Notes: a model not told the origin generated them from the sequence alone. A stretch of 64,000 bases of DNA from Escherichia coli (GCF_036507355.1 NZ_AP027877.1), one strand, 5' to 3'; positions 44,229 to 45,569 are shown, numbered from the stretch's first letter. Numbers and translations are program-made.

Positions 44229-44232
44229 AAAA

Positions 44233-44269
44233 ATTAATAATAATTGATATAACAATGATTCTTATTATC
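44233..44269 (-). promoter_or_regulatory. Fur box-like sequence upstream of ydiE
   Basis: On the ydiE strand: gataataagaatcattgttatatcaattattatta, resembling the GATAATGATAATCATTATC consensus. Confidence 0.6.
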
Positions 44270-44359
44270 AATATTATGGCTGACCAGAGCAAGCAGTAAT
44301 GTGTTGAGAAGACAACAAGTTGCGCAGAAATGCCCATTCCGTCAGGAATGGGCACGCAT

Positions 44360-45406
44360 TCAGAAGCGGGTATCTACCGCAGAGGCGAGTTTTTCGACCA
44401 GGCGTTCGGTATCTTCCCAGCCCAGACACGGGTCGGTAATGGATTGACCGTAAGTGAGCGGCTGACCGCCGACGATTTTTTGCGTTCCTTCGCGCAGGAA
44501 ACTTTCCGCCATAATTCCAGCAATCGCCGTAGAGCCATTGCGGATTTGCTGACAAATATCCTCACAAACTTCTAACTGGCGACGGTGCTGCTTCTGGCAG
44601 TTACCGTGGCTGAAATCCACCACCAGATGTTCAGGTAAATCAAACTCGTGCAGCGTATCGCAGGCTGCGGCGATATCATCGGCATGATAATTCGGTTTTT
44701 TGCCGCCACGCATAATAATGTGGCCATACGGGTTGCCGCTGGTCTGATAGATGGTCATCTGACCATTTTTGTCTGGCGAGAGGAACATATGGCTGGCGCG
44801 GGCTGCGCGGATAGCATCCACAGCAATCCGCGTGTTGCCATCGGTACCATTTTTAAAACCTACCGGACAGGAGAGTGCCGAAGCCATTTCGCGGTGGATC
44901 TGACTTTCGGTAGTACGTGCGCCAATCGCGCCCCAACTGATTAAATCAGCAATAAACTGACCGGTCACCATATCGAGGAACTCGGTCGCGGTTGGGACGC
45001 CCAGCTCATTTACCTGTAAAAGTAATTTGCGCGCCAGTTCCAGACCGTGATTTACCCGATAGCTGCCGTTTAAATCTGGATCGGAGATTAGTCCTTTCCA
45101 GCCGACAACAGTTCGTGGTTTTTCAAAATAGGTGCGCATTACGATTTCCAGCCGTGACTGGTACTGGTTGCGCAGCGACTGCAGACGGGTGGCGTACTCC
45201 ATTGCAGCGGTGAGATCGTGGATCGAGCAGGGGCCAATAATGACCAACAGTCGCTTATCTTCACCATTGAGTATTTTTTCAATTCTGCGGCGGGAGTCGG
45301 TGACATGGGTGGCGACGCCAGGCGTTACGGGATACCGTAGCGCGAGTTCGGCGGGCGTTACCAGGCTCTCAATACGCGCAGTACGGAGTTCGTCAGTTCT
45401 GTTCAT
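44360..45406 (-). CDS. aroH: DAHP synthase, Trp-sensitive
   Basis: Start at MNRTDELRTARIESLVTPAEL (348 aa); ORF track extends 41 codons upstream. Confidence 0.93.
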   Translation of the reverse strand: MNRTDELRTARIESLVTPAELALRYPVTPGVATHVTDSRRRIEKILNGEDKRLLVIIGPCSIHDLTAAMEYATRLQSLRNQYQSRLEIVMRTYFEKPRTVVGWKGLISDPDLNGSYRVNHGLELARKLLLQVNELGVPTATEFLDMVTGQFIADLISWGAIGARTTESQIHREMASALSCPVGFKNGTDGNTRIAVDAIRAARASHMFLSPDKNGQMTIYQTSGNPYGHIIMRGGKKPNYHADDIAAACDTLHEFDLPEHLVVDFSHGNCQKQHRRQLEVCEDICQQIRNGSTAIAGIMAESFLREGTQKIVGGQPLTYGQSITDPCLGWEDTERLVEKLASAVDTRF

Positions 45407-45551
45407 TACAAGTCTCAGAAATTTGTTGCTTCTACGGCAGGACTGCCGGGAAGTGATGCGCATCACGATAAACCAATCGCTGCTGATTTCAAGTGCGAGG
45501 TGTGTCACACCTCGCCGGGTGGTTAGCATGATAACAAAAAAATAAGCTAAT

Positions 45552-45569
45552 GCACTAGTTCTCTAGTAC
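45552..45569 (-). promoter_or_regulatory. TrpR operator-like palindrome in the aroH promoter region
   Basis: GTACTAGAGAACTAGTGC on the aroH strand; overlaps the ppsR stop codon. Confidence 0.6.

Follow-up and report, generated by a model that had tools for sequence, protein, structure and literature searches.

The aroH promoter-operator of Escherichia coli K-12 belongs to the TrpR regulon (trpEDCBA, trpR, aroH, mtr and aroL), in which the operator is located at the -35 position in aroH, overlaps the -10 element in the trp operon and overlaps the start site in trpR. TrpR binding and tryptophan-dependent repression were reportedly established in the classical operator papers of Kumamoto (1987) and Klig (1988). 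aroH itself is an established TrpR target (PMC5343134), and the element found upstream of aroH in the DNA described here is the same as that of K-12, with no difference in kind. A second described system is that of the Fur-repressed hemP/ydiE genes, such as Yersinia hemP and Salmonella ydiE, to which the ydiE gene of the present locus is alike in specifying a small PF10636 protein and in having a promoter-overlapping Fur box. Unlike the Fur-repressed hemP genes of Enterobacterales, ydiE of E. coli follows aroH as a solitary gene outside any hemin-uptake operon, and its Fur box is a poorer consensus match than that of most relatives (4 versus 1-3 mismatches). A third system to be considered is the 3’ end of lacI with the O3 operator, which resembles the aroH locus in that an operator serving a downstream promoter is placed over the end of a co-directional upstream gene.

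The window, i.e. the whole stretch of 64,000 nucleotides of E. coli DNA (NZ_AP027877.1) that was analyzed, contains a region of 1.7 kb with the order ppsR-aroH-hemP(ydiE)-selO (Table 1), which finds a match covering 80% or more of its length, with 95-100% identity, in 5420 of the 5426 complete E. coli genomes, the genes being named ppsR, aroH, hemP (ydiE) and selO on the matching genomes. The PpsR, AroH and YdiE proteins are identical to those of strain MG1655, in which the gene order is also the same, and the ydiE product matches the Pfam hemP family PF10636 with an E value of 2e-15, thereby bearing out the HemP-like product proposed in a preliminary description of this DNA. The same description was wrong in presenting ppsR as convergently arranged with aroH: the open reading frames, in agreement with how MG1655 and other strains are annotated in RefSeq, place ppsR, aroH and ydiE as a head-to-tail row in tandem on the minus strand. 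Among 80 aroH loci retrieved from species-representative genomes, ppsR adjoins aroH on its 5’ side and in the same direction throughout the Enterobacterales, and it is not found at this position in Vibrio, Photobacterium and Aeromonas. In strain F11 (NZ_CP184143.1, NZ_CM184318.1), an IS5-family transposase is inserted within the ppsR-aroH-hemP stretch.

It is proposed, with a probability of roughly 0.9, that the ppsR-aroH-ydiE tandem row carries two independent, classical repressor-operator pairs, namely TrpR/aroH and Fur/ydiE. Both operators have already been described, and the present copy represents the same elements in a non-K-12 E. coli strain; the discovery value is little: control of aroH by TrpR dates back to the 1980s, and genome-scale datasets already contain the control of ydiE by Fur. 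Sequences, positions and conservation were obtained in this analysis and two mapped transcription starts were placed on the sequence; in vivo occupancy by Fur and CRP, Fur-dependent expression and the identity of aroH as a TrpR target were taken from the literature.

Table 1 Features of the ppsR-aroH-ydiE locus and its neighbours, with coordinates counted from the first nucleotide of the window.
Feature	Position	Strand	Basis and remarks
selO	42597-44033	+	ORF list
ydiE/hemP, 63 aa, HemP family	44037-44228	-	ORF list, RefSeq, Pfam
Fur box GATAATAAGAATCATTGTT	44251-44269	-	Covers -13 to +6 relative to the mapped start of ydiE; the 24-mer of the preliminary description is at 44246-44269
Mapped ydiE start	44256	-	28 nt before ATG; PMC3415461 supplement
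ydiE promoter, TTGCTC-17-GATAAT	44264-44292	-	Hexamers fit the mapped start
Hairpin past aroH stop, GCCCATTCC-TGAC-GGAATGGGC, weak T tract	44332-44353	-	Folding
aroH, Trp-sensitive DAHP synthase	44360-45406	-	ORF list, RefSeq, Pfam DAHP synthase I
CRP site I, CGTGATGCGCATCACT	45452-45467	-	Centre at -2.5 from downstream start; ChIP-seq peak list
Mapped aroH start, downstream promoter	45457	-	5’-triphosphate-enriched start 51 nt before ATG; PMC3415461 supplement
Downstream aroH promoter, TTGAAA-16-TATCGT	45465-45492	-	Promoter scan and mapped start
CRP site II, TGTGACACACCTCGCA	45494-45509	-	Centre at -44.5 from downstream start; same ChIP-seq peak
Upstream aroH promoter under TrpR control, extended -10 TGTTATCAT	45528-45536	-	Start predicted at about 45521, operator centre near -39.5
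TrpR operator of aroH, GTACTAGAGAACTAGTGC	45552-45569	-	Consensus match; wider palindrome AATGTACTAG/CTAGTGCATT at 45549-45572
ppsR last sense codon (Tyr277, TAC) and stop TAG	45563-45568	-	Both within the left half-site of the operator
ppsR, PEP synthetase regulatory kinase/phosphorylase	45563-46396	-	ORF list, Pfam PF03618 (Kinase-PPPase), RefSeq; directly 5’ of aroH, co-directional
ppsA	46729-49107	+	ORF list

A TrpR operator is taken to be a near-palindromic site of 18 bp with two CTAG cores, the centres of which are 8 bp apart (GNACTAGTNNACTAGTNC), and GTACTAGAGAACTAGTGC possesses this organization, both cores being intact and the consensus GTACTAGTTAACTAGTAC being matched with 3 mismatches. 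Nowhere else in the 64-kb window does a site come within 3 mismatches of GTACTAGTTAACTAGTAC, the number expected by chance being 0.01 and a match being present in one of 100 shuffled sequences. The centre of the palindrome is located 154.5 nt from the aroH ATG (45406), in line with the distance of about 150 bp given previously, and comparison with K-12 shows the same sequence at the same position relative to aroH. The palindrome is the TrpR operator of aroH, the binding of TrpR itself being taken from published work, and it is to this site that tryptophan-bound TrpR would attach.

An alternative assignment of the palindrome, in which it would chiefly serve ppsR as an intrinsic terminator (an RNA hairpin followed by a U-run) with its operator likeness being secondary, draws on the fact that AATGTACTAGAGAACTAGTGCATT together with AGCTTATTTT is called terminator-like by a terminator scan, that the hairpin folds at -10.3 kcal/mol and that no other obvious ppsR terminator is present before aroH. 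However, the stem is A+T-rich with three G-C pairs out of ten, the U-run starts 3-4 nt past the stem, and the T-run is confined to Escherichia and Citrobacter sequences, whereas the palindrome is far more widely conserved. Furthermore, the bases that are conserved correspond to the TrpR-contacted CTAG cores rather than to stem complementarity as such, and Term-seq data (Adams 2021) contain, among the matches listed, no 3’ end close to the stop codon of either ppsR or aroH, which constitutes weak evidence. With neither a G+C-rich stem nor an immediate and conserved U tract, a terminator was rejected as the main function of the palindrome, for which it is an unlikely explanation, and terminator activity would at most represent a weak secondary function of what is the aroH operator.

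The 3’ end of ppsR reads ...CGA ATG TAC TAG (translated as ...LSRRMY*), with the stop codon at 45563-45565, and the operator covers 7 nt of this gene, i.e. the G of Met276, the TAC codon of Tyr277 and the TAG stop. These seven bases of the left half-site (G-TAC-TAG) would double as coding and stop signal of ppsR and as part of the operator. The overlap, as noted in the preliminary description, is thus real, and it is conserved in relatives: in 22 species representatives of Enterobacteriaceae, which constitute one related clade and should not be counted as independent events, the first operator base lies exactly 4 nt ahead of the stop codon of ppsR and the right half-site CTAGT is located 4 nt past this codon, while ATGTACT and CTAGT, the blocks of the two half-sites, show no variation among 21 aligned Enterobacteriaceae sequences. 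The last sense codon of ppsR is TAC in all 22 overlap-bearing species; among 30 Enterobacterales lacking the right half-site it is TAC in 7, TAT in 6, TTC in 10 and TTT in 7. The stop codon is TAA in 16, TAG in 5 and TGA in one of the former, and TGA in 14, TAA in 10 and TAG in 6 of the latter.

A codon-by-codon comparison was performed on 18 ppsR genes of full length and without gaps, all from the clade that carries the operator, these again being members of one clade and not independent samples. Tyr277 is encoded by TAC in all 18 species, whereas the six other invariant Tyr columns all contain a mixture of TAC and TAT, and an invariant codon was observed in just 10 of the 200 columns in which a degenerate amino acid is invariant. 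Therefore, the operator seems to constrain the synonymous site of Tyr277, and the locus offers a clean and quantified case of a coding 3’ end and stop codon that double as half an operator, with a footprint that is visible on synonymous codon choice. At shorter evolutionary distance, divergent E. coli strains (two per motif, four in all) were found to carry SNPs beside the TrpR operator and beside the Fur box of ydiE, and none inside either.

Operators that are detached from the ppsR stop were also encountered, namely a stand-alone operator 20 nt past the stop in Enterobacter sp. ENT03 (locus 2318-2501) and one 205 nt past the stop in a soil MAG (locus 2136-2501), from which it follows that the overlap is not required for retention of the operator. 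In Hafnia paralvei and Edwardsiella ictaluri, an operator-like sequence, GTACTAGTAA[A/G]AAAGTAC, is positioned about 126 nt before the aroH ATG and clear of ppsR; its right CTAG core is degenerate and it may represent a diverged TrpR site. Since the Met-Tyr-stop sequence (ATGTACTRR) is also present in taxa without the operator, e.g. Erwinia and Rouxiella, the coding end of ppsR could have supplied a ready-made left half-site.

The sharing of sequence between a coding end and an operator had been called unusual, which is an overstatement given that the lacI 3’ end with O3 provides a textbook parallel. The two cases differ in that LacI sits on the end of its own gene, while TrpR sits on the end of an unrelated gene, ppsR. 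In the lac system, LacI bound at O3 blocks transcription of lacI, resulting in an mRNA without a stop codon and in SsrA-tagged LacI, according to a passage in PMC3711431 that cites Abo et al. 2000. By analogy, and because TrpR would occupy the last seven bases of ppsR with no convincing ppsR terminator preceding it, Trp-bound TrpR might act as a roadblock to polymerases that are finishing ppsR, generating stop-less ppsR mRNA and tmRNA-tagged PpsR, although we consider such a scenario unlikely. If it were true, a link would exist between tryptophan status and the PEP synthetase regulator, PEP being a substrate of AroH. Better supported by the sequence comparison than this roadblock is the notion that the operator imposes purifying selection on the TAC codon of Tyr277 and on the choice of the ppsR stop codon.

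With regard to the promoters of aroH, the extended -10 element TGTTATCAT begins 16 bp downstream of the operator and its hexamer TATCAT 18 bp downstream, so that the operator, through its right half, would occupy the -35 position of a predicted upstream promoter. A TAnnnT hexamer is located 17-18 bp past the operator in all 21 aligned Enterobacteriaceae sequences. Judged from this arrangement, transcription from the upstream promoter would start at about 45521, and TrpR bound over its -35 position would keep RNA polymerase off this promoter.

The MG1655 catalogue of transcription starts contains a single aroH start, 51 nt before the ATG, which is represented by 414 reads from cells in glucose minimal medium without tryptophan (PMC3415461), and aroH and ydiE starts have no entries, among the matches listed, in the Mendoza-Vargas 2009 or Cappable-seq data. 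From this mapped start (45457) the operator centre is at -103.5, too far for occlusion, and the start taken alone would be incompatible with the position of the palindrome. Such an incompatibility had been named as a possible objection in the preliminary description, in which there was no mention of two aroH promoters; the objection is answered by the separate promoter predicted beside the operator. Most simply, aroH would have two promoters, the upstream one repressible by TrpR and the downstream one independent of TrpR, and two aroH promoters are already named in the literature, as aroHp1 and aroHp2. The downstream promoter, about 64 bp further on, beyond the reach of the operator and associated with two CRP sites, would then provide TrpR-independent expression of aroH. 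For annotation purposes, it should be taken into account that only the upstream aroH promoter is within reach of the operator, and that start-site catalogues containing the downstream start alone would wrongly make the operator look misplaced.

It may be argued that the operator, being weak or vestigial, matters little for the expression of aroH, and that most transcription originates from the downstream, CRP-associated promoter. The only mapped start that was retrieved, in minimal medium without tryptophan, belongs to that promoter, which would not be anticipated with the upstream promoter as the main one; moreover, the downstream promoter block is the best-conserved part of the ppsR-aroH spacer, surpasses the TrpR-controlled promoter in conservation and is still found in Hafnia and Edwardsiella. 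Ongoing selection on the operator is nevertheless indicated by the invariant half-site cores, by their fixed spacing to the -10-like hexamer and by the frozen synonymous site of Tyr277; aroH is also accepted as a TrpR-repressed gene, and the operator is still kept where it stands alone, away from the stop codon, as in ENT03 and the soil MAG. A vestigial operator is accordingly regarded as improbable, and the reading of one TrpR-repressible and one TrpR-independent promoter is retained.

A high-confidence CRP ChIP-seq peak at aroH has been reported in ETEC H10407, with both CRP sites being listed under this peak (PMC4287617), and the GTGAT/ATCAC arms of site I are nearly invariant across genera. 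The assignment rests on these published data and on conservation, as the CRP-like pattern is not enriched in the window (4 matches versus 2.4 expected).

Two hairpins were observed in the same region. The aroH 5’ UTR contains CGGCAG-TC-CTGCCG at 45435-45448 (minus strand), the stem of which is kept across genera with few two-sided changes (TGGCA/TGCCA in E. albertii and CGGT/ACCG in Shimwellia) and has no Rfam match. A perfect palindrome of 10+10 nt, GCGAGGTGTG-A-CACACCTCGC, is present between the two aroH promoters at 45495-45515 (minus strand), overlaps CRP site II and forms a hairpin in the folded leader predicted for the upstream promoter (-33.7 kcal/mol for the whole 115-nt leader). In a study of the small RNA GcvB, aroH was not significantly regulated by GcvB.

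The second repressor-operator pair is located in the 131-nt spacer between aroH and ydiE, where GATAATAAGAATCATTGTT matches 15 of the 19 positions of the Fur consensus GATAATGATAATCATTATC, Fur sites being built from arrays of hexamers resembling GATAAT. With 4 mismatches it is the best match in the window, in which no site with 3 or fewer mismatches to GATAATGATAATCATTATC was found, so that the preliminary description was correct as to the presence of a Fur box at ydiE, while its designation as near-consensus was too strong. The box begins with the -10 hexamer of ydiE and runs to +6, which is a classical occlusion geometry; iron-bound Fur would bind over the -10 hexamer and the start of the ydiE/hemP promoter and would shut ydiE off when iron is plentiful.

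A chance likeness to Fur sites within AT-rich promoter DNA has to be weighed here, considering the four mismatches, the G+C content of the spacer of 36% and the expectation of 0.17 sites with at most 4 mismatches per 64 kb, 13.5% of the shuffled windows having at least one, such that the whole-window statistic alone is not significant. Within the spacer, 3 of 2000 shuffles equal the match of GATAATAAGAATCATTGTT. Phylogenetic footprinting is more telling: of 30 aroH-linked ydiE orthologues in other Enterobacterales (from genera including Enterobacter, Citrobacter, Cedecea, Yersinia, Serratia, Providencia, Photorhabdus, Proteus and Moellerella), 29 have, at 19-55 nt before the ATG, a Fur box that departs from the consensus at no more than 4 positions and usually at 1-3, and at the same position a better box (1-3 mismatches) is kept in about 25 other species although the flanking sequences have diverged. 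In published work, ydiE belongs to the core Fur regulon as defined by ChIP-exo and expression analysis in nine E. coli strains (PMC10164565), and Salmonella ydiE, for which a Fur site was reported, is up 7.4-fold in a fur mutant (PMC3212961). Chance likeness, an extremely remote prospect in view of this combined footprinting, ChIP-exo and expression evidence, was ruled out; the ydiE site is a Fur box, its in vivo occupancy and the Fur-dependent expression of ydiE being taken from the published work, which also upholds the Fur regulation proposed previously. In the BL21 fur deletion, ydiE is the one core Fur-regulon gene that goes down and not up (PMC10164565).

A genomic-SELEX study placed an RNA-polymerase-binding ‘constitutive promoter’, together with H-NS, in the aroH-ydiE spacer. 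The 28-nt ydiE leader, which has TTGTTATATCAATTATTATTAATTTTT before the ATG (44229-44245, minus strand), contains no recognisable Shine-Dalgarno sequence.

On the aroH side of the same spacer, the 52-nt segment at the 3’ end of aroH that includes the hairpin GCCCATTCC-TGAC-GGAATGGGC folds at -21.4 kcal/mol, and the terminator scan made no call at this hairpin. It is probably a leaky aroH terminator, and read-through from aroH into ydiE is possible.

Comparison with Rfam identified no RNA family in either the leader of aroH or the region of ydiE, and no tRNAs were found in the 64-kb window. Elsewhere in the window, matches at the gathering level were obtained for the RprA sRNA (61922-62029, minus strand), the Phe leader of pheST (34565-34689, plus strand), STnc540 (38530-38688, plus strand) and ES036/CssrF (13282-13324, minus strand).
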